Source: Escherichia phage phiD2-2. From it: a DNA stretch of 49,337 bases. Positions 1,920-43,932 of this stretch are shown piece after piece. Within the stretch, counting starts at the first letter, position 1; every line of letters begins with the position of its first letter. The notes under the pieces are model-generated. The model saw only the letters and a program-made list of their open reading frames with translations, did not search any database and was not told the origin of the DNA. The stretch is from sequence record OR861627.1. One strand, given 5' to 3'. Position numbers and translations under genes: made by a program.

Positions 1920-2327
1920 TCAAATTCTTCTTTCGTAAGCTGGAGCCTTGCGCACAATTCGACGTTCCGATCTATCAATGTTTCTACGTTCGCCAAACAA
2001 ATCTTCATCACTCATCTCTCCAATGTGCATCATTTCCCACGTATACCGATTGTTGTAGCCATCAATACACATCAGCTTCATCATTACCGGGCGCTTAATC
2101 TTTCCCTTGCACCAGTAAACTCCATCCTTGCGATCTAAGTAACCCTCAGTCACGCAACGAGCGCAAAACTCCTTAGATAGCGCGCTTGTAAATTCACGGC
2201 GAGTCATTCCAGCAGCCTTAGCAAATCGCTCACTTTCCTTGTGGGCGTATATAAATTTCGCTATGTGCTGTCGAGTGTATTTGTCGTAACCTTCGCAGAA
2301 TATGAACAGATCTAGAAGAAGCAGCAT
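1920..2327 (-). CDS. hypothetical protein (135 aa)
   Basis: Track ORF; start 4 nt after the stop of the upstream gene, suggesting translational coupling. Confidence 0.45.
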   Translation of the reverse strand: MLLLLDLFIFCEGYDKYTRQHIAKFIYAHKESERFAKAAGMTRREFTSALSKEFCARCVTEGYLDRKDGVYWCKGKIKRPVMMKLMCIDGYNNRYTWEMMHIGEMSDEDLFGERRNIDRSERRIVRKAPAYERRI

Positions 2328-2331
2328 ATCA

Positions 2332-3900
2332 TTAACCCATCAGCCGAGGATTAATGAAAACAATATCATCAATCCGGCAAGTGTAGTTCATCTCTTCGAG
2401 CGTGATAAGAAGACTATCGATTCGCTCAGATACTTTCTGTTGACCGTTGAAAGGCGTAACGTTCCGGCACTTTGCAACGATGCTATGAATAGGTGCGCGG
2501 CCTTTGTTTTTCTTCGCGATCTCAGTGATAACATCAATCAGCTTACGAGATTCAGCCTCATCACCAGCATACCCGGCAGCGCTGGCAGACGACAGATAAG
2601 TCCTGGAAAGCTCATTGAAGATCATGATTGCTTCCTGCATTGTTTCAAGGTCAATCTCACGGTTGGAACGGTTCGGTGATTCACCCTCCCAATTCTTGAT
2701 CGTGTGGAGAACTGAAGCAATACGCAAGGCGTGCTTATCGAACTTGCCGAGATGACCGCGTAGCATTGAGTGAGAGTATTTCCCACCTGCGGCGAAATCC
2801 GGTTCCATCGCCTGACGCGCAAGGTTTAATTCACGCATAGCATTACGGCTTACAGAGAGAACAACGTTTTCCTCCTTCATGATGTTGTGAACGAGTCTGT
2901 AATATTTGCTAACCAGTCCTCGATCGACTTCTTTATACAATGCATCACCATTTTCATCACAAAGAATACGAGTACCTAAAAGCGGTTCCTCGCGAACTAA
3001 CAGGAAGCGCTCAGATACACCGATACCTCGTTGGCCTGCGTCCATGATACCTTTGATTGTTTCATCCTGCGCAATTACGCAGATCGAGCCAACCGGGCAA
3101 AGAGACAAGTTGTTGTCCTGATTGGAGCGAGCGACCTCCATATGGTTTTTATCCCACGCCTTAAGAATAAGCTCACTGTTAGATTTCTTATCTGAACCTC
3201 CATACGTAAGACCGAGCAATGTATTGATTGCCGTTGCCTCATCAGAAATTACGGAAAAGTGGCCCTGAACAGCGGCTACTTTCGCAAGACCTTCAGGTGT
3301 AGGATCTGATACAGCAAAAACAATATCAGCCATCTTTTTGATCTTCTCTTCCAGTTTTTCTTTGTCCTCGTATAGTGCCGCAGTCGTGTTTCCTTTAGGA
3401 TCATTCTTGATTTCCTTCTCAACCTGGCGTAGCTGACTGGTTAAACGAATACGTTCCTTTTTGCGCTCTTCATTCAGTCGCTGAATCTCCGCACGCATAG
3501 GTGTAATCGCCGCTGAGTTAATCGCGGACTTACCTGTTGATGGTGGCTGGCTGATTACCATGTAAAGCGCGGTCGGCTGTTCCTCTCCGTGATATTGCAC
3601 CCAAAACTTCCCGAGCATCGCGGCTGAGATGCAACCTATAAAATGAGCATACGCGGATGAAACCGGGAACTGGACTGATTCAGCTTTTGCTTTTGCATAT
3701 TCGAATACCAGGTTATCGCCACCTAACGAAATCAGAGGGAACTTATCGTTGCCGCTATTGATATCGATCGGATCTTGCCAAAATGAAACTGAGTCACCAT
3801 AGCTGTTTTCACGAATTGCGATCGCCACCGGATTAACTCCAGTGCTATTGGCGATCTCAATAATCTGTTGGTAATTCAGTTTTGGCTTAATATTAAACAT
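2332..3900 (-). CDS. P-loop NTPase, DUF3987-like putative replication/helicase-associated protein
   Basis: Walker-A-like PPSTGKS, long coiled-coil insert, acidic VISDEAT Walker-B-like stretch; ATG (MFNIKPK) preceded by AAGGAG. Family assignment is from memory of the architecture. Confidence 0.45.
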   Translation of the reverse strand: MFNIKPKLNYQQIIEIANSTGVNPVAIAIRENSYGDSVSFWQDPIDINSGNDKFPLISLGGDNLVFEYAKAKAESVQFPVSSAYAHFIGCISAAMLGKFWVQYHGEEQPTALYMVISQPPSTGKSAINSAAITPMRAEIQRLNEERKKERIRLTSQLRQVEKEIKNDPKGNTTAALYEDKEKLEEKIKKMADIVFAVSDPTPEGLAKVAAVQGHFSVISDEATAINTLLGLTYGGSDKKSNSELILKAWDKNHMEVARSNQDNNLSLCPVGSICVIAQDETIKGIMDAGQRGIGVSERFLLVREEPLLGTRILCDENGDALYKEVDRGLVSKYYRLVHNIMKEENVVLSVSRNAMRELNLARQAMEPDFAAGGKYSHSMLRGHLGKFDKHALRIASVLHTIKNWEGESPNRSNREIDLETMQEAIMIFNELSRTYLSSASAAGYAGDEAESRKLIDVITEIAKKNKGRAPIHSIVAKCRNVTPFNGQQKVSERIDSLLITLEEMNYTCRIDDIVFINPRLMG

Positions 3901-3972
3901 CACAATAAACTCCTTGGTTGACGGTGTAAATGATACACCGCCAATGGTACACGCGTTTTGCAAAAAGTGCTA
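3901..3972 (-). promoter_or_regulatory. gene-boundary cassette upstream of the DUF3987-like gene
   Basis: TAGCACTTTTTGCAAAAC, hairpin CGGTGTA/TACACCG around TATCAT, CCAAGGAG leader. Confidence 0.5.
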
Positions 3973-5468: not shown

Positions 5469-5669
5469 TCAGGATAGCTTTCTCGCTTCATCAATGATAA
5501 CAGGTTCAAGACGCTCAAGTCTAACGCGGAACGTGTTCATAAATCCTTCGTTATTCTTCAGTAGCTCGAATGCGTCTGTTGCCTCAATTGCGCTATTTCC
5601 CATGTAGGCAACTACGCTCTTTTGCGTCCTGCGTGAGATCGCAACCACGCGGTAAATATTATCACTCAT
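5469..5669 (-). CDS. hypothetical protein (about 66 aa)
   Basis: Track ORF trimmed to ATG (MSDNIYRV) with GGAGG 6 nt upstream; ATGAGTGA overlap with upstream stop. Confidence 0.5.
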   Translation of the reverse strand: MSDNIYRVVAISRRTQKSVVAYMGNSAIEATDAFELLKNNEGFMNTFRVRLERLEPVIIDEARKLS

Positions 5670-6033
5670 ATAATGCCTCCTTGACGCGACCCGCAATGCA
5701 GGAGTTGACGGTGATTGAGTAGTTAGCCACACCCCACAATGCAATATTGCCAAGTTCAGTGCGCATTGATGGATTGTTAAGCTGGATTATCATCTCTCCA
5801 GTATCGTTATCTACGAAACGAGACGCGCCAGAATGGTCCGCCACGCGCGTTACTCGGTTCACGCACTCCATTGCATCACTTACACCGTAATAAGCGCTTA
5901 GAGCGGCTCTCACTGCCTTCTCTTGCTTGTTGTAAATCTTGCGCGCAATGTTCTCGATCGCTACGTTCTCTTTCTCGTCAGTCTGGATTGCTGTGCTTGC
6001 TGAGAAGTCCAGGTCTACGAATTGTTTAAGCAT
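5662..6033 (-). CDS. hypothetical protein (123 aa)
   Basis: Track ORF preceded by a full boundary cassette. Confidence 0.6.
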   Translation of the reverse strand: MLKQFVDLDFSASTAIQTDEKENVAIENIARKIYNKQEKAVRAALSAYYGVSDAMECVNRVTRVADHSGASRFVDNDTGEMIIQLNNPSMRTELGNIALWGVANYSITVNSCIAGRVKEALYE

Positions 6034-6108
6034 GGTGATTGCCTCGTTTTCTGTTGATGGGAGAACTATAGCAGCCCTCCCGCATTTTCGTTTAGCAAAA
6101 AGTGCTAT
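6034..6108 (-). promoter_or_regulatory. gene-boundary cassette
   Basis: TAGCACTTTTTGCTAAA, hairpin GGGAG/CTCCC enclosing TGcTATAGT, ATCAACAGAAAACGAGG leader. Confidence 0.55.
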
Positions 6109-6294
6109 TTAGAATTTTACATCTTCAACAAGCTCAACCATTTTGTAACCAAGTCGATAGGAGTCCCCGAACAATAACAGACCCATAAATTCATCGTTGG
6201 TTATTGACTCCTTGCCAACAGTTTTAAGCTCTCCGTTGTGAATCACGGTATCGCCGATCTTGATTTCTGATTTATGAACTAATTTTGTTTTCAT
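6109..6294 (-). CDS. hypothetical protein (61 aa)
   Basis: Track ORF immediately downstream of 6310-6495 in the same operon. Confidence 0.45.
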   Translation of the reverse strand: MKTKLVHKSEIKIGDTVIHNGELKTVGKESITNDEFMGLLLFGDSYRLGYKMVELVEDVKF

Positions 6295-6712: not shown

Positions 6713-7261
6713 TCAGAGGTCCCAAAGACAAGTTTTCTTCGGGTAAGCATCTCGCGGCGCAATATACATCGGGAACCAGGGGTGTGAGTCATTCTCAGGA
6801 AGATAGCCGCCATACTCCCAGGGATTGAAGGAGTGATTTGGTTTTCTCCACGCAGACGACAGGGCGCTCACCGGATTCTCAATGATGTAAGTCACGCCCA
6901 GGCTATCTCCAATGTTCGCAGCAATCCGGGCACTAGCGACAGCCTTCTCCTGGAATAACGGATCGCGTTCACGCTTGCTGGCAAAGTGTCGCGCACCACT
7001 AACAGCCAGGTCAGTGCACGGCGGGAAAGCCATAATGAAATCCGGCTTGCCATACACGCCAGCGATAGCATCACGTTCGAACGTTTCATCAATGAACACG
7101 TTCACATACTCAATGTTCGGATGCTCCACTCTGGCATTGTACTTTTCGTAATCTCCGTGATCGGCTCCGTCAAAGTTGAAGCACATCACCTTATGACCTT
7201 GCTTAGCCAGTTCATGACCTGCAAGACCGGAACCGTCAAATAGCGACCAGATTAATTTCAT
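6713..7261 (-). CDS. DNA cytosine-C5 methyltransferase-like protein, unusually short (182 aa), possibly frameshifted
   Basis: Motif I-like LFDGSGL, motif IV-like FPPCTDLAVSG (PC dipeptide, Q replaced by T), motif VI-like IIENPV; AAGAGG RBS. Overlapping frame 6556..6813 carries an RRKLVFG stretch that resembles motif VIII. Confidence 0.5.
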   Translation of the reverse strand: MKLIWSLFDGSGLAGHELAKQGHKVMCFNFDGADHGDYEKYNARVEHPNIEYVNVFIDETFERDAIAGVYGKPDFIMAFPPCTDLAVSGARHFASKRERDPLFQEKAVASARIAANIGDSLGVTYIIENPVSALSSAWRKPNHSFNPWEYGGYLPENDSHPWFPMYIAPRDAYPKKTCLWDL

Positions 7262-7470
7262 TTCGTTACCTCTTTGAATACCGTCTGCCCGTTATTGGTC
7301 AGGAAGCGATCCCATCCATTCATTGAGCGGAAAACGCCGATCTGATTTTGCTGATTGTCAGTAGCGAAGTACCCACCATCAATAAGGTAGATCTCATACA
7401 CTGATTGATTCGTGAAGCTGTCGGTGCTAACGCTAATGCATTGCACGGCACATTCAAATTTTGGTTCCAT
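7258..7470 (-). CDS. hypothetical protein (70 aa), first gene of the leftward early operon
   Basis: Track ORF preceded by CCAATCAGAGGAAT leader and cassette; stop overlaps the methyltransferase-like gene start. Confidence 0.55.
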   Translation of the reverse strand: MEPKFECAVQCISVSTDSFTNQSVYEIYLIDGGYFATDNQQNQIGVFRSMNGWDRFLTNNGQTVFKEVTK

Positions 7471-7546
7471 TGCGTGATTCCTCTGATTGGTTGATGAGGT
7501 GAATCATACCCGATCGGCAGGACTGATGTGTGGCAAAAAATGCTAT
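7471..7546 (-). promoter_or_regulatory. gene-boundary cassette heading the leftward early operon
   Basis: ATAGCATTTTTTGCC, TATGAT, CATCAACCAATCAGAGGAAT leader. Confidence 0.5.
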
Positions 7547-7615
7547 TCCAATAGTTGCTCATTATTCCACCAGCAATGGAATATCTGGAATAATTGCGAT
7601 CCCGATTGATCTAGA

Positions 7616-7690
7616 ATGATGAAATGTGATTGTTGCATGATGTGCAACTGTTGATGTGATTGTTGCTTGGAATGCAATGATTGTGAGAGG
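7616..7690. repeat. tandem operator-like units (GTGATTGTTGC with TTGCA-N5-TGCAA inverted repeat)
   Basis: Two about 30-bp units; first contains perfect TTGCATGATGTGCAA. Confidence 0.5.
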
Positions 7691-7733
7691 GAGGATCTAG
7701 TGTTACCCGGTTCGTCTGGTAGTCATCTCCATT

Positions 7734-7753
7734 TTTAGCAAAAAGTGCTATCG
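7734..7753. repeat. boundary palindrome copy at the edge of the AT-rich hub
   Basis: TTTTAGCAAAAAGTGCTATC. Confidence 0.5.
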
Positions 7754-8154
7754 ATTACACTTTACCTTGTCACGGATGTAATATTTGTCTAGAATCGCAC
7801 TTGTGACAAAATTACACACTGTGACGCCTCTAAATATACATATAGATATATGTATCTATATAATATATATAGTGTTTTTTTTATTTATATATATAGATAA
7901 TTATATTGTAATAGTTGTGTATAGTTGTCTTACATTGTCTAGCGTACTGTTGGCATATTTCTATCTGCATGTTTATATATACAGTACTTTTTTGAGAGCT
8001 ATATATTTCTATAGTGACTCTAGACAGCTAGACAAATGTTACACGGCTTAAAATTGGCTCGCAGGCATTGACAGCTCTACATCGCAATGTCACAATGGCA
8101 ATTGTTGGCACATTATGACACCATTTACACACGAATAGACAAAGAGGGTATATT
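7754..8154. promoter_or_regulatory. AT-rich divergent control hub 1 with GTGTAA/TGTCTA-type repeats
   Basis: Alternating TA tract (7840-7910), TTGTCAC/GTGACA repeats, GTGTAACATTTGTCTAG in reverse orientation near 8027-8046, TTGACA near 8069. Confidence 0.5.
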
Positions 8155-8670
8155 ATGAGCAACACCAATCAGGAATTAAAAATCACCGATATGATTCGAC
8201 TAACCTGCGATGCAATGTATCGCGACAAAGGCATGAATGAGTTCTCTTTCGTGGCTGATGATATGGCCCTCGAGGCCGCGCGATTCTACTTCCGTGACCA
8301 GGAGGTAAGTGATAGCGATCTTGAATCTGCCGCTGCCGGATGGGTGGACCAGAACCAGGGTGAGGTGGAGAAGCGATTCAAGTCTGCTTTCATTACGCCA
8401 ATCATTACCCGGCACTTTTGCAAGTATGGCAAGGTGGCAAAGGTGAAGGTAGGCCGGAATGACGCTGCAATCACAATGATAACGGTTATCGTTACCGACG
8501 AAGAGATTCCCGTGAAGAAGCGCCGCAGCCGGAAAAAAGTTAGCCTGGCCGACTGCCTGGATTCGTTTGATGTTGATGTTGGCAAGCTATCGGATAGCGA
8601 GTTAATGGTTCGCGACGTGAATGAGATCGTACGCCAGATGAAAGCACATATCGAAAAGTGCGGGCTGTAA
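8155..8670 (+). CDS. hypothetical protein (171 aa), first rightward early gene
   Basis: Track ORF with AAGAGGG RBS; acidic patches. Confidence 0.6.
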   Translation: MSNTNQELKITDMIRLTCDAMYRDKGMNEFSFVADDMALEAARFYFRDQEVSDSDLESAAAGWVDQNQGEVEKRFKSAFITPIITRHFCKYGKVAKVKVGRNDAAITMITVIVTDEEIPVKKRRSRKKVSLADCLDSFDVDVGKLSDSELMVRDVNEIVRQMKAHIEKCGL

Positions 8671-8684
8671 CGCTGATAGGTGAA

Positions 8685-8760
8685 ATAGCACTTTTTGTTA
8701 AAGCCCGGTCGAGCGGATCGGGTATTATCTTCTCATTGACACGATACAGAGGAATCGAAG
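8685..8760 (+). promoter_or_regulatory. gene-boundary cassette
   Basis: ATAGCACTTTTTGTTAAAG, hairpin CCCGG..CGGG, TATTAT, CAGAGGAAT. Confidence 0.5.
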
Positions 8761-15978: not shown

Positions 15979-16143
15979 ATGATGCAAAACACCAAAGACG
16001 AATCAGTAAAAATTGAAATTAAAGTAACTCGCAACGGTGAAACCACTCGTTATAAAAAACGATTAAATCCGGGAGAGGCTGTTATTGGTCGAATTGCTGG
16101 CGTTATGATTAAGGCGCAGGAAGATGAAGCGATTCAAGGTTAA
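15979..16143 (+). CDS. hypothetical small protein (54 aa)
   Basis: Hand-translated; AAGAGGA 6 nt upstream of ATG; follows a structured leader. Confidence 0.4.
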   Translation: MMQNTKDESVKIEIKVTRNGETTRYKKRLNPGEAVIGRIAGVMIKAQEDEAIQG

Positions 16144-16309
16144 ATTAATTATTCGAAAGATGGGGATGTTTTGCCAGTCGTGCAAACAATCTTTCGAAAC
16201 AGAATTATCTGCAACCAGTCAGGCAGAAGCCATCACGAAAGCAAAAAAACTTTCCGGCGCTAACCTTGACACTCACAAAATAAATATTGAATTAATCAAG
16301 GAGATTTAA
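16124..16309 (+). CDS. hypothetical small Cys-containing protein (CQSCKQ); start uncertain
   Basis: Track ORF overlapping the previous gene; poor RBS at listed start, internal starts possible. Confidence 0.3.
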   Translation: MKRFKVKLIIRKMGMFCQSCKQSFETELSATSQAEAITKAKKLSGANLDTHKINIELIKEI

Positions 16310-16310
16310 C

Positions 16311-16538
16311 ATGACAATTTTTTTATTGATTATCGCTGGTGTCATTATTTTTGGTGCTGGTTTGTTTGCTGGCTTCGCACTTGTGGCGGCAGCAATTGCG
16401 ATGGACGCGAAGGATAAAACTGGTGTATGGCTGACCTACTCACCTAAGAAGGACCAATGGGAGATGACTGGCGACCTTGCTCACTGCTACTCTAAAGCTC
16501 AGACCCACCCTAAAGGAATTAAGCGACTATTGTCGTGA
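16311..16538 (+). CDS. small membrane protein (75 aa)
   Basis: AAGGAG RBS; N-terminal TM helix IFLLIIAGVIIFGAGLFAGFALVAAAIAM; followed by a terminator. Confidence 0.5.
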   Translation: MTIFLLIIAGVIIFGAGLFAGFALVAAAIAMDAKDKTGVWLTYSPKKDQWEMTGDLAHCYSKAQTHPKGIKRLLS

Positions 16539-16546
16539 TAAACACT

Positions 16547-16571
16547 AACCCGCTTCGGCGGGTTTTTTTAT
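16547..16571 (+). terminator. rho-independent terminator ahead of the packaging genes
   Basis: Stem CCCGC/GCGGG with TTCG loop then T7. Confidence 0.7.
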
Positions 16572-16622
16572 GCCTGCAATATGGTAAAATAGCACTAAAT
16601 GTTAAACAAAGAGGATGGATTT
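16572..16622 (+). promoter_or_regulatory. extended -10 (TGgTAAAAT) plus palindrome in the TerS leader
   Basis: After terminator: TGGTAAAAT then TAGCACTAAATGTTAAAC then AAGAGGA RBS. Confidence 0.45.
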
Positions 16623-33265: not shown

Positions 33266-36200
33266 ATGATTCAAAAAGTGATAAGTGGATCTAAAGGCGG
33301 CTCGCCTAAGCCTCATAATCCAGTTGAGATGGAAGACAATCTAATCTCAATCAACAAAATCAAGATCCTGTTAGCTGTATCTGATGGTGAAATTGACGAA
33401 ACATTCAGCCTGAAGCAGTTGATGTTTAACTCAGTCCCGGTGCAAAACGAGGATGGATCGTTCAACTTCGAAGGGGTAAAGGCTGAGTTCAGGCCGGGAA
33501 CTCAGACGCAGGAATACATCAAGGGCATGGAGGATAGTTCCAGCGAGGTAACTGTAAATCGTGAGGTTACTACCGATAACCCATACACGATCTCAGTGAC
33601 CAATAAAACACTATCGGCAATACGCATCAAAATGTTCATGCCTCGCGGCGTACGAATTGAAAGTAACGGTGATAAAAATGGCGTAAGAGTTGAGTATGAG
33701 GTGCAACAAGCTGTTGATGGCGGTTCGTTTGAGACTGTTCTTACTGACGTAATTGAAGGCAAAACAATGTCAGGTTACGACAGAAGTCGACGTGTAAACC
33801 TGCCTAGCTTTAACAACCAGGTAATATTCAGAGTTGTTCGAAAGACTCCAGACTCTAACGACTCTAACGTTGTTGATGCGATCCAGGTAAAGAGCTATGC
33901 CGAGGTGATTGATGCCAAATTCCGTTACCCTCTGACAGGTCTTCTTTTCGTCGAGTTCGACTCGAAGATGTTCCCAAACCAGTTACCTACGATCTCAATT
34001 CGTAAGCGCTGGAAGATTGTAAGCGTTCCGTCGAACTACGACCCAGAATCGCGAACATACAACGGCAATTGGGATGGCACTTTCAAAAAAGCATGGACGA
34101 ACAATCCGGCGTGGGTTCTTTATGACCTGATGATTAATCAGCGTTACGGCTTGGATCAGAAAGAGCTTGGTATCGCTGTCGATAAATGGGCGCTCTACGA
34201 GGCTGCGCAATATTGCGATCAGATGGTTCCTGATGGGAAGGGCGGGACGGAACCTCGATACCTTTGCGACGTGATAATCCAGTCTCAGACTGACGCTTAC
34301 AAGGTTATTCGAGATATTTGCTCAATCTTTCGAGGTATGAGCTTTTGGAATGGCGAAAGCATTTCGGTAATCATCGATAGGCCGCGTGAGCCTGCGTACA
34401 TCTTCACTAACGACAACGTGGTTAATGGTGACTTCTCCTACACGTTTGCAAGCGAAAAGAGCATGTACACGACGTGTAATGTGATGTTTGACGACGAGCA
34501 AAACATGTATCAGCAGGACGTTGAGCCAGTATTCGATCGTGAGGCTACTCTACGGTTCGGGAACAACGTAACGAGCATTACAGCGATCGGCTGCACACGT
34601 CGAAGCGAGGCCAACCGACGCGGGAGATGGATTCTGAAAACTAACCTCCGCAGCACTACGGTAAACTTCGCTACCGGACTTGAGGGTATGATTCCGACAA
34701 TCGGAGATGTTGTGGCAATAGCTGATAACTTCTGGTCAAGTAACTTGACGATGAACCTATCAGGGCGCTTGCTCGAAGTATCCGGTAGTCAGATTTTCTT
34801 GCCGCTCCGGGTGGATGCACGCGCGGGTGACTTTATTATCGTAAATAAGCCAGATGGCAAGCCCGTGAAGCGCACAATATCAAGTGTTAGTGCGGATGGT
34901 AAGACTATAGAGGTTAACATTGGCTTTGGCTTTCCTGTGAAGCCTAACACGGTATTCGCTATCGACCGCACCGACATTGCGTTACAGCAGTACGTCGTGA
35001 CAAAAATCGATAAGGGCGATGATGATGAGGAATTTACCTACAAAATAACGGCGGTGGAGTACGATCCTAACAAGTACGATGAGATTGATTACGGAGTTAA
35101 TATCGACGACCGACCGACGAGCATCGTTGAACCAGATCAGATCCCTAGACCGGAAAACGTGCAAGTGTCCTCAGAGTCACGAATCGTCCAGGGGATGAGC
35201 GTAGAAACGATGATTGTTAGCTGGGATAAAGTGCCGTACGCAGTTTTCTATGACGTCCAGTGGCGAAAGGATAACGGCAACTGGCAAAATGTACCGCAGA
35301 CAGCAAACAAAGAGGTATACGTTGAAGGTATTTACGCTGGCAACTATCAGGTTCGCGTTCGCTCCGTAGCTGGTTCCGGTACGACTTCAGGATGGTCAAA
35401 TGTCGTAGCTGCGACGCTGACGGGCAAACAAGGTGAGCCGGGTGGACCGATTAACCTTACAGCTACGGATGATGTTGTTTTTGGTATCCGTACAAAATGG
35501 GGGTTCTCTGATGGTTCTGGAGATACGGCCTATACAGAGTTGCAACAGTCACCAGATGGAACAGTGGATAACGCAAGTTTGCTTTCTTTGATTCCGTACC
35601 CGCAGCATGAGTATTATCACTCACCGATGCCTGGAGGGAATATTGTTTGGTATCGTGTAAGGACGGTTGATAGGATCGGTAACGTGTCTCAGTGGACTGA
35701 TTTTGTCAGAGGTATGGCATCAACAAACGTTGACGATATCATTGGGGAGATTTCTGTCGATATCGAAAACTCGCCGGGTTACGAGTGGCTTGTTGATAAC
35801 GCAACCGACAACGCGGCGCAGAACGCAGCTAACGCAGAGGCAGCAATAGAAAACGCGCTCGCCAATGACAAAGACGCGATCTACATGAAGAAGGAGAACG
35901 GAAAACGAAAAGCTGAGTACACGAAATCACTGAAACTTATTGCTGATGAGACGCAGGCGCGAGTGACGGCGATCGAGCAATTGAAGGCAAGTTTTGGCGA
36001 TCAGATTAGCGCTAGCAACAGCGAATTGCGTGAAGTTATCGCAACTGAGACTGGAGCGCTATCGCGTGAAATTGACCAACTCAGGGCAGAGATTGGTGAT
36101 GATATCCAGGCAAGTTTGACCGATATCAGAGAGGCTATAGCAAACGAGACTGAGGCGAGAACGCAAGCTGACTTGTCGTTAAGCGCGAGGCTTGGGAATA

Positions 36201-36685
36201 ATGAGGCAGCACTTTCTCAAAAACTTGATTCGTGGAGCAATGCAGATTCGACTGGTGCAATGTACGGCGTCAAGCTCGGTCTGAAGTATAACGGCCAAGA
36301 ATACAGTGCAGGCATGGCTATGTCTCTGATTGGTTCCGGAGCTGCGGTTAAGGCGCAGATTTTGTTTGAGGCATCACGATTTGCCATCATGAATGGAATG
36401 AATGGTCAGACTCAGTACCCATTCGTTGTTGAGAATGGCCAGGTTATTTTAAGTAGCGCGATTATCAAGAACGGATTCATCACGAATGCGATGATTGGTA
36501 ATGTTATTCAATCGAATAACTATGTCGTTAACAAGGCTGGCTGGATACTTGACAAGGGTGGAACATTAGAAAACTACGGAAGTGACGCTGAGGGTGCAAT
36601 GAAGCAAACTAATACCACAATATCTGTTAGGGATGCGAGTGGTCGCCTGAGGGTTCAGATTGGCAGGTTGACTGGTTCATGGTAA
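33266..36685 (+). CDS. central tail fibre / tip attachment protein (lambda gpJ-like)
   Basis: 1139 aa after the M-L-K-I series; coiled-coil segment near residue 850-950. Confidence 0.8.
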   Translation: MIQKVISGSKGGSPKPHNPVEMEDNLISINKIKILLAVSDGEIDETFSLKQLMFNSVPVQNEDGSFNFEGVKAEFRPGTQTQEYIKGMEDSSSEVTVNREVTTDNPYTISVTNKTLSAIRIKMFMPRGVRIESNGDKNGVRVEYEVQQAVDGGSFETVLTDVIEGKTMSGYDRSRRVNLPSFNNQVIFRVVRKTPDSNDSNVVDAIQVKSYAEVIDAKFRYPLTGLLFVEFDSKMFPNQLPTISIRKRWKIVSVPSNYDPESRTYNGNWDGTFKKAWTNNPAWVLYDLMINQRYGLDQKELGIAVDKWALYEAAQYCDQMVPDGKGGTEPRYLCDVIIQSQTDAYKVIRDICSIFRGMSFWNGESISVIIDRPREPAYIFTNDNVVNGDFSYTFASEKSMYTTCNVMFDDEQNMYQQDVEPVFDREATLRFGNNVTSITAIGCTRRSEANRRGRWILKTNLRSTTVNFATGLEGMIPTIGDVVAIADNFWSSNLTMNLSGRLLEVSGSQIFLPLRVDARAGDFIIVNKPDGKPVKRTISSVSADGKTIEVNIGFGFPVKPNTVFAIDRTDIALQQYVVTKIDKGDDDEEFTYKITAVEYDPNKYDEIDYGVNIDDRPTSIVEPDQIPRPENVQVSSESRIVQGMSVETMIVSWDKVPYAVFYDVQWRKDNGNWQNVPQTANKEVYVEGIYAGNYQVRVRSVAGSGTTSGWSNVVAATLTGKQGEPGGPINLTATDDVVFGIRTKWGFSDGSGDTAYTELQQSPDGTVDNASLLSLIPYPQHEYYHSPMPGGNIVWYRVRTVDRIGNVSQWTDFVRGMASTNVDDIIGEISVDIENSPGYEWLVDNATDNAAQNAANAEAAIENALANDKDAIYMKKENGKRKAEYTKSLKLIADETQARVTAIEQLKASFGDQISASNSELREVIATETGALSREIDQLRAEIGDDIQASLTDIREAIANETEARTQADLSLSARLGNNEAALSQKLDSWSNADSTGAMYGVKLGLKYNGQEYSAGMAMSLIGSGAAVKAQILFEASRFAIMNGMNGQTQYPFVVENGQVILSSAIIKNGFITNAMIGNVIQSNNYVVNKAGWILDKGGTLENYGSDAEGAMKQTNTTISVRDASGRLRVQIGRLTGSW

Positions 36686-36690
36686 TATCA

Positions 36691-36718
36691 AGGGCATCGA
36701 GAGATGCTCTTTTCTTTT
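36691..36718 (+). terminator. rho-independent terminator after the J-like gene
   Basis: Stem GGGCATC/GATGCTC then TTTTCTTTT. Confidence 0.6.
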
Positions 36719-38040: not shown

Positions 38041-38502
38041 TTACAATTTTTTTTCGTGTAACGGGTGTCTATTTTTGTAACTGGAGATGGTGTTACAAAA
38101 TCTACCCAATCCGAACGCAGGTAGATATGATAAAAACTCTATATAATATATATAGATAGATAATATTTAATTTTAGCTTTATATATATAATTATTGTTGT
38201 GTAACAGTTGTCTATCGTGTAACTGGTGATTTGATTGATTCGTCAAATTTCTATCATATATGTTCAAAATTTAATCAATATGGATTCTACTTGTAGCTAT
38301 CCCTGTATTTCTAAGAAAAAGCGGTTACAAGTATTACACAGTAGACATCACATAAAAATAGACTTAAGCCATTGATTCCGTTAATGCTGGTTGTAACTTG
38401 AGCGATATAGACACGCTATTACACACCAATTACATGTATCCGATTGACTAAACGCTGTTAATGGCTATAATGGATTCATCGTAAACGAGGGAGATAAACG
38501 CA
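38041..38502. promoter_or_regulatory. AT-rich divergent control hub 2 with GTGTAAC-N-GTCTAT-N-GTAACTGG iterons
   Basis: Direct copies at 38055-38084 and 38197-38226, inverted copies near 38320-38350 and 38388-38426, TA-rich tract 38130-38200, consensus promoter at 38444-38471. Confidence 0.55.
38444..38471 (+). promoter_or_regulatory. sigma70-type promoter for the recombination operon
   Basis: TTGACT, 16-bp spacer, TATAAT; about 30 nt upstream of the exonuclease ATG. Confidence 0.65.
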
Positions 38503-43376: not shown

Positions 43377-43397
43377 TGTTTTAACTAAAAATGCTAT
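43377..43397 (-). repeat. boundary palindrome copy containing the HTH gene stop
   Basis: Leftward reading ATAGCATTTTTAGTTAAAA with TAA stop inside; terminator follows. Confidence 0.5.
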
Positions 43398-43833
43398 TGG
43401 TCGTCCCGATATCTTCCTTCTTCACGACGCGCATAAATTTCTTGTTCTTGCATCGCTTCTCAAGGCACTTGCCGTTACCGTCAAACTTCAGGTCGAATCG
43501 CAACCATGCGGCACGAAATCCTTTACACCCCTGTCGTCGGTAAGCACGATGCGCAGCTTCAGCACCTTGCCACGAAATCATGTTGCGTTCTTTCCAGCCT
43601 TGCACCGTCTGATTGCTAACCTTTAGAGCTTTTGCGCAGGCCGCAGGGCCACCATAATATTCGATAAGCGCATCAAGTCGCGCTCGCAATCCGGCGCGTG
43701 TTTCTTCTTTATGAATATAGAAGCCGCAGCGCTGTCGAGGCTTTTTATCTTTACCGCGTCGTGTTCCGTTGTTACCATTGATGTGACGTTTATCGATTTC
43801 ACCAGTTGACTCTGCGATACGTTGAATACTCAT
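43381..43833 (-). CDS. putative DNA-binding regulator (Cro/YdaS-like HTH plus Cys-rich C-terminus)
   Basis: AACAKALKVSNQTVQGWKERNMIS looks like a Cro/CI-type HTH; C-terminal cysteines suggest zinc binding; AGGAG RBS abuts a palindrome copy. Confidence 0.4.
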   Translation of the reverse strand: MSIQRIAESTGEIDKRHINGNNGTRRGKDKKPRQRCGFYIHKEETRAGLRARLDALIEYYGGPAACAKALKVSNQTVQGWKERNMISWQGAEAAHRAYRRQGCKGFRAAWLRFDLKFDGNGKCLEKRCKNKKFMRVVKKEDIGTTNSIFS

Positions 43834-43845
43834 CTTAATTCTCCT

Positions 43846-43932
43846 ATAGCACTTTTTGCTAAAAACGTTTACTGTATGCCGTGTATTATAGCGTAAACGT
43901 TACAACGATTCAAAGGATTAATAGACGTGACA
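43846..43932 (+). promoter_or_regulatory. divergent palindrome/cassette between HTH gene and helicase
   Basis: ATAGCACTTTTTGCTAAAAAC, hairpin AACGTTTAC/GTAAACGTT enclosing TATAGC, AAAGGA. Confidence 0.5.

Follow-up and report, generated by a model that had tools for sequence, protein, structure and literature searches.

In phage SPP1 two distant regions, oriL and oriR, share short direct repeats beside an AT-rich segment and are both bound by the G38P protein, and in P4 two cis sites lying kilobases apart, ori and crr, carry the same short repeat TGTTCACC, which is bound by the alpha protein. In the iteron origins of lambda, of plasmids and of SaPI islands an AT-rich unwinding element has short phased repeats on its flanks, and the repeat specificity shifts between related replicons. 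In T4 oriF/oriG and the primary origin of T7 a promoter-like box is followed by an unwinding element, and initiation is transcript-primed. Here two AT-rich intergenic modules of Escherichia phage phiD2-2 are compared with these systems. The window, i.e., the whole stretch of DNA analysed (sequence record OR861627.1, 49,337 nucleotides), is that of a T1-like siphophage (Tunavirus, Drexlerviridae), and the modules are hub 1 (7752-8154), which forms the right part of the region 7547-8154, and hub 2 (38041-38502, with the module itself at 38050-38502). The region 7547-8154 is best explained as a composite control region with two separable parts, the left of which (about 7547-7700) would be a packaging initiation region recognised by terminase and not an operator.

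Like SPP1, phiD2-2 has one short-repeat family and an AT-rich segment at two distant sites. Unlike in SPP1, no G38P-like protein was recognised in the phage, the repeats are 6-bp TGT-hexamers phased at 9-10 bp in opposed arrays, and the two sites, which are putative origins, are intergenic and end in promoters. The P4 repeat resembles TGTTCAC, the hexamer of phages of the TLS type, and phiD2-2 encodes a DUF3987-type helicase; however, neither this helicase nor a 135-aa protein considered below matched P4 alpha in sequence, and the hubs differ from the P4 sites in being full paralogs, each with its own AT core. There is a likeness to iteron origins in the phasing of short repeats around an AT-rich putative unwinding element and in the lineage specificity of the repeat, although the hub arrays lie neither in nor beside an initiator gene, their repeats are only 6 bp long, DnaA boxes are not enriched, and there are two copies per genome. 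By analogy with T4 and T7, whose origins have no flanking iteron arrays, the TATAAT box in each hub core could allow transcript-primed initiation.

T1 belongs to the classic series of seven T phages, and the two modules bring its replication origin and early control region within reach of direct tests. A re-annotation of phage TLS in 2024 reported that there are no iteron-like repeats anywhere in the TLS genome and that no origin has been identified in T1-like phages, and listed basic regulatory questions as open (PMC11447400). Beyond that paper, neither a T1 origin, iterons or a pac sequence nor any description of the hubs was found in the accessible literature; the only repeat family described for T1-like phages is a 21-nt element, and the hub modules, though undescribed there, are architecturally familiar. 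From the present analysis come two conserved DNA modules, together with candidates for the binding protein and for the pac sequence, in a family with more than 800 sequenced genomes. The lineage-specific hexamers offer a natural system for studying the co-evolution of a DNA-binding protein with two target sites, and they are of relevance to the engineering and rebooting of Drexlerviridae phages.

The sequence-only reading on which this analysis followed up had proposed that the two hubs share a repeat family. Local alignment of hub 1 with hub 2 gave a score of 62 in the same orientation, compared with 23.7±3.2 for dinucleotide shuffles (z 11.8), while the 15 lowest-GC windows of 400 nt elsewhere scored 20.3±2.1 and at most 28, so the similarity exceeds that of background AT-rich DNA. 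Seventeen ten-mers are common to both hubs (1.65±1.67 expected), among them CTATATAATATATATAG from the core and ATTTCTATC from the spacer. The composite motif TGTAAY-N3-TGTCTA, allowing at most one mismatch, has six matches in the genome against 0.31 expected, all six of them inside the two hubs, and TGT[ACG][AT][ACT] dimers at N3-4 spacing have 17 of their 19 genomic matches within the 1.9% of the sequence that the hubs occupy. The two hubs are thus collinear paralogs, and the proposed sharing of a repeat family was borne out. They are not known RNAs, since an Rfam search of both returned no family match.

Both hubs are about 400 bp long and follow a common plan, consisting of a left array, inverted copies, an AT core, a middle array, a spacer of 75-100 bp, two minus-strand arrays and a promoter. 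Arrays comprise three to four hexamers spaced 8-11 bp, mostly 9-10 bp, apart; one orientation is found on both sides of the AT core and the opposite orientation further right. The left array has three direct plus-strand hexamers (at 7768, 7777 and 7786 in hub 1, and at 38057, 38066 and 38076 in hub 2), followed by one or two inverted copies. As in iteron origins, at least three direct copies of a short motif are therefore phased at about one helical turn.

In hub 1 the left array (7768-7791, plus strand) reads TGTCAC, TGTAAT and TGTCTA with spacings of 9 and 9 bp, and is opposed by the inverted hexamers TGTGTA and TGTCAC (7803-7818, minus strand). The AT-rich core (7828-7906, plus strand), a putative unwinding element, carries a conserved CTATATAAT box with TATAAT at 7859-7864, and is followed by the middle array TGTAAT, TGTGTA, TGTCTT and TGTCTA (7907-7941, plus strand; spacings of 9, 10 and 10 bp). 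Right array 1, in the opposite orientation, contains TGTAAC, TGTCTA and TGTCTA (8021-8043, minus strand), and GTGTAACATTTGTCTAG is found in reverse orientation at 8028-8046. A sigma-70-type promoter, TTGACA-17-(TG)CACAAT (8068-8096, plus strand), leads into the open reading frame (ORF) 8155-8670, and right array 2, downstream of it, contains TGTCTA, TGTGTA and TGTCAT (8115-8141, minus strand). In hub 2 the left array TGTAAC, TGTCTA, TGTAAC is joined by an inverted TGTAAC at 38092-38097 (38057-38097 together, plus strand). The core (38122-38196, plus strand) likewise carries CTATATAAT, with TATAAT at 38142-38147, and the middle array reads TGTAAC, TGTCTA, TGTAAC (38200-38223, plus strand; spacings of 9 and 9 bp). 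The two right arrays, both on the minus strand, contain TGTCTA, TGTAAT and TGTAAC (38324-38347) and TGTAAT, TGTGTA/TGTAAT and TGTCTA (38408-38434), and the hub ends with a near-consensus sigma-70 promoter for recE-erf-ssb, TTGACT-16-TATAAT (38444-38471, plus strand). The AT-rich tract and the reverse-orientation repeats of hub 1, as well as the tandem units to its left, were all found where they had been placed from the sequence alone.

The AT cores are 75-80 bp long. The core at 7828-7906 contains the least stable 60-bp duplex of the genome (z 5.8) and hub 2 the second least stable (38134-38194, z 5.5), the third-ranked segment reaching a z of 3.5; as would be expected of unwinding elements, the cores are the two least stable windows at both 60 bp and 100 bp (z 5.2-6.0). 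The hubs are also the only two genome segments with a G+C content of 0.33 or less. Hub 1 lies in a gap of 684 nt between a leftward operon, of which the first ORF is 7258-7470 and the next is methylase-like, and the rightward ORF 8155-8670, so the gene orientation agrees with the earlier description of 7547-8154 as a divergent region. It is located at the main gene-orientation switch of the genome and at the minimum of the cumulative GC skew. Hub 2 has the leftward cor gene on one side and the rightward recE-erf-ssb genes on the other.

Because phased repeats in opposed arrays surround a conserved and easily melted core, hub 1 lies at the skew and orientation switch, and recombination and replication genes adjoin hub 2, we propose that the modules are replication origins of the iteron-plus-unwinding-element type that are coupled to early-promoter control, a reading to which we give slightly less than an even chance. 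A sequence-specific protein encoded by the phage would bind cooperatively to the phased hexamers on one helix face and, once bound, would melt or remodel the adjacent AT core; a transcript started from the core's TATAAT box may help in this opening. The same binding to the hexamers would modulate the flanking putative immediate-early promoters.

The divergence of the hexamers was compared with that of the remaining hub positions using 15 distinct Tunavirus hub-2 sequences and six hub-1 sequences. It was about 5-7 times lower in the hexamers (0.0095 vs. 0.064, p 0.004; 0.0093 vs. 0.044, p 0.007), and the hub-2 core at 38141-38195 was nearly invariant, with three variable columns among the 15 sequences. 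Hexamers and core are under purifying selection. An AT-rich region 5' of recE with a G+C content of 0.31-0.36 was present in 46 of the 46 Drexlerviridae loci retrieved, and a peak of same-strand TGT at lags of 9 or 10 was found in the hub of all 46 and was absent from the recE coding sequence. The module architecture is kept in these 46 recE-upstream loci and in the six genomes examined.

The repeat itself differs between lineages. The hexamers are TGTAAC/TGTCTA in Tunavirus and TGTAATC in phage SRT8, and the corresponding repeats are TGTTC(AC) in TLS-like phages, TATACGC/TGTAAC in Rogue1-like phages and GTAAGAT in Webervirus (Sweeny). In each of TLS, Rogue1 and Klebsiella phage Sweeny the genome's own repeat and a paralogous core are common to both hubs, and hub 2 shares 19-22 8-mers with hub 1 of the same genome but 0-10 between genera. 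Repeat change has therefore been mostly parallel at the two hubs, lineage by lineage. The simplest reading of these comparisons is that one phage-encoded protein co-evolves with its sites at both hubs. The earlier proposal of one DNA-binding factor acting at both sites thus gains support from the paralogy, from the conservation of the hexamers and from the occurrence of each lineage's own repeat at both hubs. In Webervirus (Sweeny 33989-36489) hub 2 has followed the recE-erf-ssb module through an inversion and is now found between recE and the primase gene, at the 3' end of the latter, from which we conclude that the module is a unit tied to recE and independent of the divergent gene junction.

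The similarity between the hubs could also be a matter of sequence history, i.e., of an old duplication maintained by RecE/Erf gene conversion or of targets for the host nucleoid proteins IHF, Fis or H-NS on AT-rich DNA, with no factor shared between the sites. The hubs are direct paralogs in a phage with its own recombination system, and hub 2 holds one perfect IHF core, as such a history would allow. Gene conversion alone does not predict, however, that hexamers are conserved relative to their spacers, and the 9-10 bp phasing extends through the whole family. Furthermore, T1, TLS and Rogue1 all grow on E. coli and yet use different hexamers, which disfavours a host factor and favours a phage-encoded binder. 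We consider this explanation very improbable. The IHF core in question (AATCAATGGCTTA, 38365-38377, minus strand) is situated between the two right-hand arrays of hub 2; of the six perfect IHF cores found genome-wide it is the only one in hub 2, and hub 1 has none.

A regulatory role of the modules, alongside or instead of an origin, is likely, because each contains a conserved promoter and arrays bracket the promoter of hub 1. Promoters were found at the place equivalent to 8068-8096 in TLS, Rogue1 and Sweeny, and a TTGAC-type promoter occupies the position of the hub-2 promoter in most of 15 representative recE-upstream loci. The hexamer arrays could accordingly be operators and nothing else, at which a regulator such as a Cro-like protein would switch off or retune the putative immediate-early sigma-70 promoters, in the manner of Cro and CI at the OL and OR sites of lambda; the AT core would then be a promoter, an UP-element or curved DNA. 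The likeness to lambda OL and OR lies in the one repeat family at two promoter regions (early ones in lambda) and in a Cro-like helix-turn-helix (HTH) protein encoded by the phage. Each hub ends in a strong conserved sigma-70 promoter, many lineages also begin with a leftward promoter of the 21-nt type, and the hub-1 arrays at 8021-8043 and 8115-8141 stand on both sides of the 8068-8096 promoter. No array overlaps that promoter, and those of hub 2 end 10 nt before the -35 element of the 38444-38471 promoter. The sites are, however, direct repeats at helical spacing and not the 17-bp dyads of a lambda-type operator region; the only short dyad seen is TTGTAAC-N10-GTTACAA at 38075-38098. Most arrays are far from -35 and -10 elements, at distances of 100-350 bp from the strong promoters, and are grouped about an AT core whose conservation exceeds that of the promoters. 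The duplex instability of the core is extreme and beyond what a promoter needs, hub 2 of Sweeny keeps the full architecture although it is no longer a divergent promoter region, and phiD2-2, unlike lambda, is virulent. A purely operator function is the main rival reading, though a less likely one, and we prefer the origin coupled to promoter control.

The best candidate for the hexamer-binding protein is a 150-aa Cro/YdaS-like HTH protein encoded between primase and helicase (43381-43833, minus strand), for which the indications from sequence comparison are suggestive. Its Pfam matches were weak (23.6 bits, below the cut-off). In 25 homologs an N-terminal basic segment (IDKR.INGNNGTRRGKD..R) is invariant and the HTH recognition helix is hypervariable; by lineage this helix reads SNQTVQGW, NLKTVWGW, TRQAVEEW or SIQVVQQW, the rest of the protein being conserved. 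A homolog of 75% identity with a similar helix occurs together with TGTAAC/TGTCTA hexamers, and a homolog of 80% identity with a changed helix is that of SRT8, in which hub 2 is dominated by TGTAATC. For two further Cro-like homologs the contigs stopped short of hub 2. At its most far-reaching, one small phage protein would be both the initiator and the early-promoter switch at both modules, placing its basic N-terminal arm on the AT core and its HTH helix on the hexamers, and replication, early transcription and the first packaging cut would be run from one 700-bp region across the Drexlerviridae. The control point of hub 1 lies about 130 bp from the putative packaging start. We regard this extended scheme as speculative and quite unlikely.

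A second small protein, of 135 aa (1920-2327, minus strand), is encoded directly downstream of the DUF3987 helicase. In the structural model its N-terminal 80 residues are winged-helix-like (predicted local distance difference test score, pLDDT, 72.6), with fold matches that were non-significant (E-values above 0.4), and in four genera the helix that precedes the wing (SKEFxAR) does not vary. The protein was set aside as the hexamer binder since genera that differ in their hexamers have the same putative recognition helix; it would suit a DNA target conserved in the family, such as the 21-nt repeat. The divergence of the DUF3987 helicase (2332-3963) between genera is fairly even and somewhat higher in the C-terminal 60 or so residues, and a sequence search of the helicase against the PDB gave no informative match.

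Several observations weigh against the proposed origins and against a single binding protein. The argument from GC skew is confounded by gene orientation. Both hubs carry promoters, and a role as operators only would explain most of the same facts. No initiator such as lambda O, SPP1 G38P or Rep was recognised in the phage, and the DnaA box TTATNCACA, allowing at most one mismatch, occurs once in hub 1 and not at all in hub 2 against 0.6 and 0.4 expected, i.e., without enrichment. The covariation of recognition helix and hexamer comprises three cases only. The hexamers of T1 hub 1 are of the GTGTTAAT type and those of T1 hub 2 are GTGTAAC, and the SRT8 hubs (5600-6114 and 35987-36698) mix the hexamer classes differently, with ten TGTAAT in hub 2 and five TGTCTA in hub 1, although they share the 17-mer GCTTACATCTTATACAT. 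The pattern in SRT8 hints at two classes of half-site or at two binding specificities, and given the different mixtures in T1 and SRT8 a model of one factor and one site is too simple.

To the left of hub 1, two tandem units of the form GTGATTGTTGC-N6-TGCAA with a 30-bp period (7624-7677, plus strand) form the probable pac region. The units (7624-7647 and 7654-7677) share 83% identity. A perfect dyad, TTGCATGATGTGCAA (7633-7647), lies in the first of them, in agreement with the perfect inverted repeat reported from the sequence alone, and the second dyad (7663-7677) pairs in 4/5 arm positions. The exact 22-nt pattern occurs in the genome only at these units; the bare 5-N5-5 dyad is not rare, with nine matches at up to one mismatch against 3.1 expected. 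Specificity lies in the full 22-nt unit and its tandem arrangement and not in the bare dyad. A hairpin or cruciform was considered and rejected, as DNA folding is weak (-7.5 kcal/mol, z -1.5). The elements of 7547-7700, namely a TTATTCCACC...GGAATA dyad and the GTGATTGTTGC-N-GCAA units, recur across genera with different hexamers, and related units were found in T1, Rogue1, Sweeny and SRT8, as would be expected of the repeated motif of a pac site.

Two observations point to a packaging start at the units. In the T1 reference record the last letters are ...ATGTGATT and the first are GTTGCATGGTGTGCAAC, which puts position 1 of that record at 7632 of the window, inside unit 1. For TLS, submolar pac fragments of 5,882 bp (pac-HindIII) and about 2.7 kb (pac-EcoRV) have been reported (PMC11447400). 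The TLS record has a HindIII site at 5876 and an EcoRV site at 2733; given this match the TLS pac end maps close to TLS position 1, and the first hexamer array follows some 120 nt to the right of it; the corresponding distance in phiD2-2 is 136 nt. Three GATC sites fall within 100 nt at the tandem units (0.57 expected), as they do at the Dam-regulated P1 pac site, and like the headful pac sites of P22, P1 and SPP1 the locus has a short repeated motif where, in TLS, the end of the first headful maps. On these sequence comparisons we consider the chances even that the tandem units are the packaging-initiation (pac) region for terminase. Speaking against it, the putative pac region does not lie inside or next to the small terminase gene, as in the phages just named, but 8.4 kb upstream of terS (about 16074-16622, approximate coordinates assigned by size and by gene order in the FCWL1 record, which is not fully collinear). 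Moreover, the opening point of the T1 record is only a putative packaging end, and many later records were oriented simply to match that record. Inside the small terminase gene, TTGCCAGTCGTGCAA at 16171-16185 (plus strand) differs from the unit dyad by a single mismatch and is similar to TTGCCAGTTTGGCAA, the unit of Rogue1; this resemblance may be due to chance.

The sequence-only reading had taken the TTGCA-N5-TGCAA pair as a dyad different from the boundary palindrome and as the likely operator of a second regulator, here one acting on the leftward operon. The units are indeed an element of their own, conserved across genera with differing hexamers. As to the regulator, dyad arms are conserved and spacers variable among Tunavirus genomes, and the units lie in the leader between the promoter-like repeat at 7733-7751 and the first leftward ORF. 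In Rogue1, however, the units are upstream and not downstream of the leftward promoter-like repeat, so their relative position is not conserved; the hairpin potential is weak, and conservation of the units across genera fits a conserved protein such as terminase. Since the start of the T1 record and the mapped TLS pac end both fall at the units, terminase at a packaging start is a better candidate than a transcription regulator, and an operator function here is unlikely.

Many Tunavirus genomes from Escherichia and Shigella match the region around 7547-8154 at 91-94% identity, and phages JMPW2, SH2 and FCWL1 match hub 2 at 99.9%. The FCWL1 record (PP558327) is almost identical to the window in places but is not collinear with it in gene order, and each of its annotated coding sequences translates on the plus strand. 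It looks rearranged or mis-assembled and for the lack of collinearity and the single coding strand was dropped as an annotation template. Within the hub-2 spacer the T1 record (AY216660, 30110-30250; 38235-38375, plus strand, in the window) has an annotated ORF of 46 aa, which is intact in 13 Tunavirus variants but was rejected as coding, since substitutions at the three codon positions (8/13/12) show a non-coding pattern.

The 21-nt intergenic repeat of the T1 family, ATAGCAC-N3-TTG-N-TAAAA, has been described with its function listed as an open question (PMC11447400). Twenty-six copies were found in the window against 2.3 expected (e.g., 1793-1811 on the minus strand, and 8685-8703 and 43846-43864 on the plus strand), and the copies that were checked against ORFs point at the neighbouring gene. 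In form the repeat is like an extended -10 promoter (TGnTAAAA) preceded by an ATAGCAC box. At 7733-7751 (minus strand) a perfect, leftward copy that conforms to the family definition, ATAGCAC-TTT-TTG-C-TAAAA, likewise has the look of an extended -10 promoter. A degenerate copy (ATAGCATTTTTTGCCACAC; 7526-7546, minus strand) faces the leftward operon, and its position is kept in T1, TLS, Rogue1 and Sweeny. Beside it, the dyad TTATTCCACC...GGAATA..GGAATA (7566-7595) is conserved in T1, Sweeny and SRT8. In TLS two tandem perfect palindromes AGACCGATTGGTCT (49790-49830), adjoining the leftward 21-nt repeat, take the place of this dyad, which together with them looks like a lineage-variable operator of the leftward promoter.

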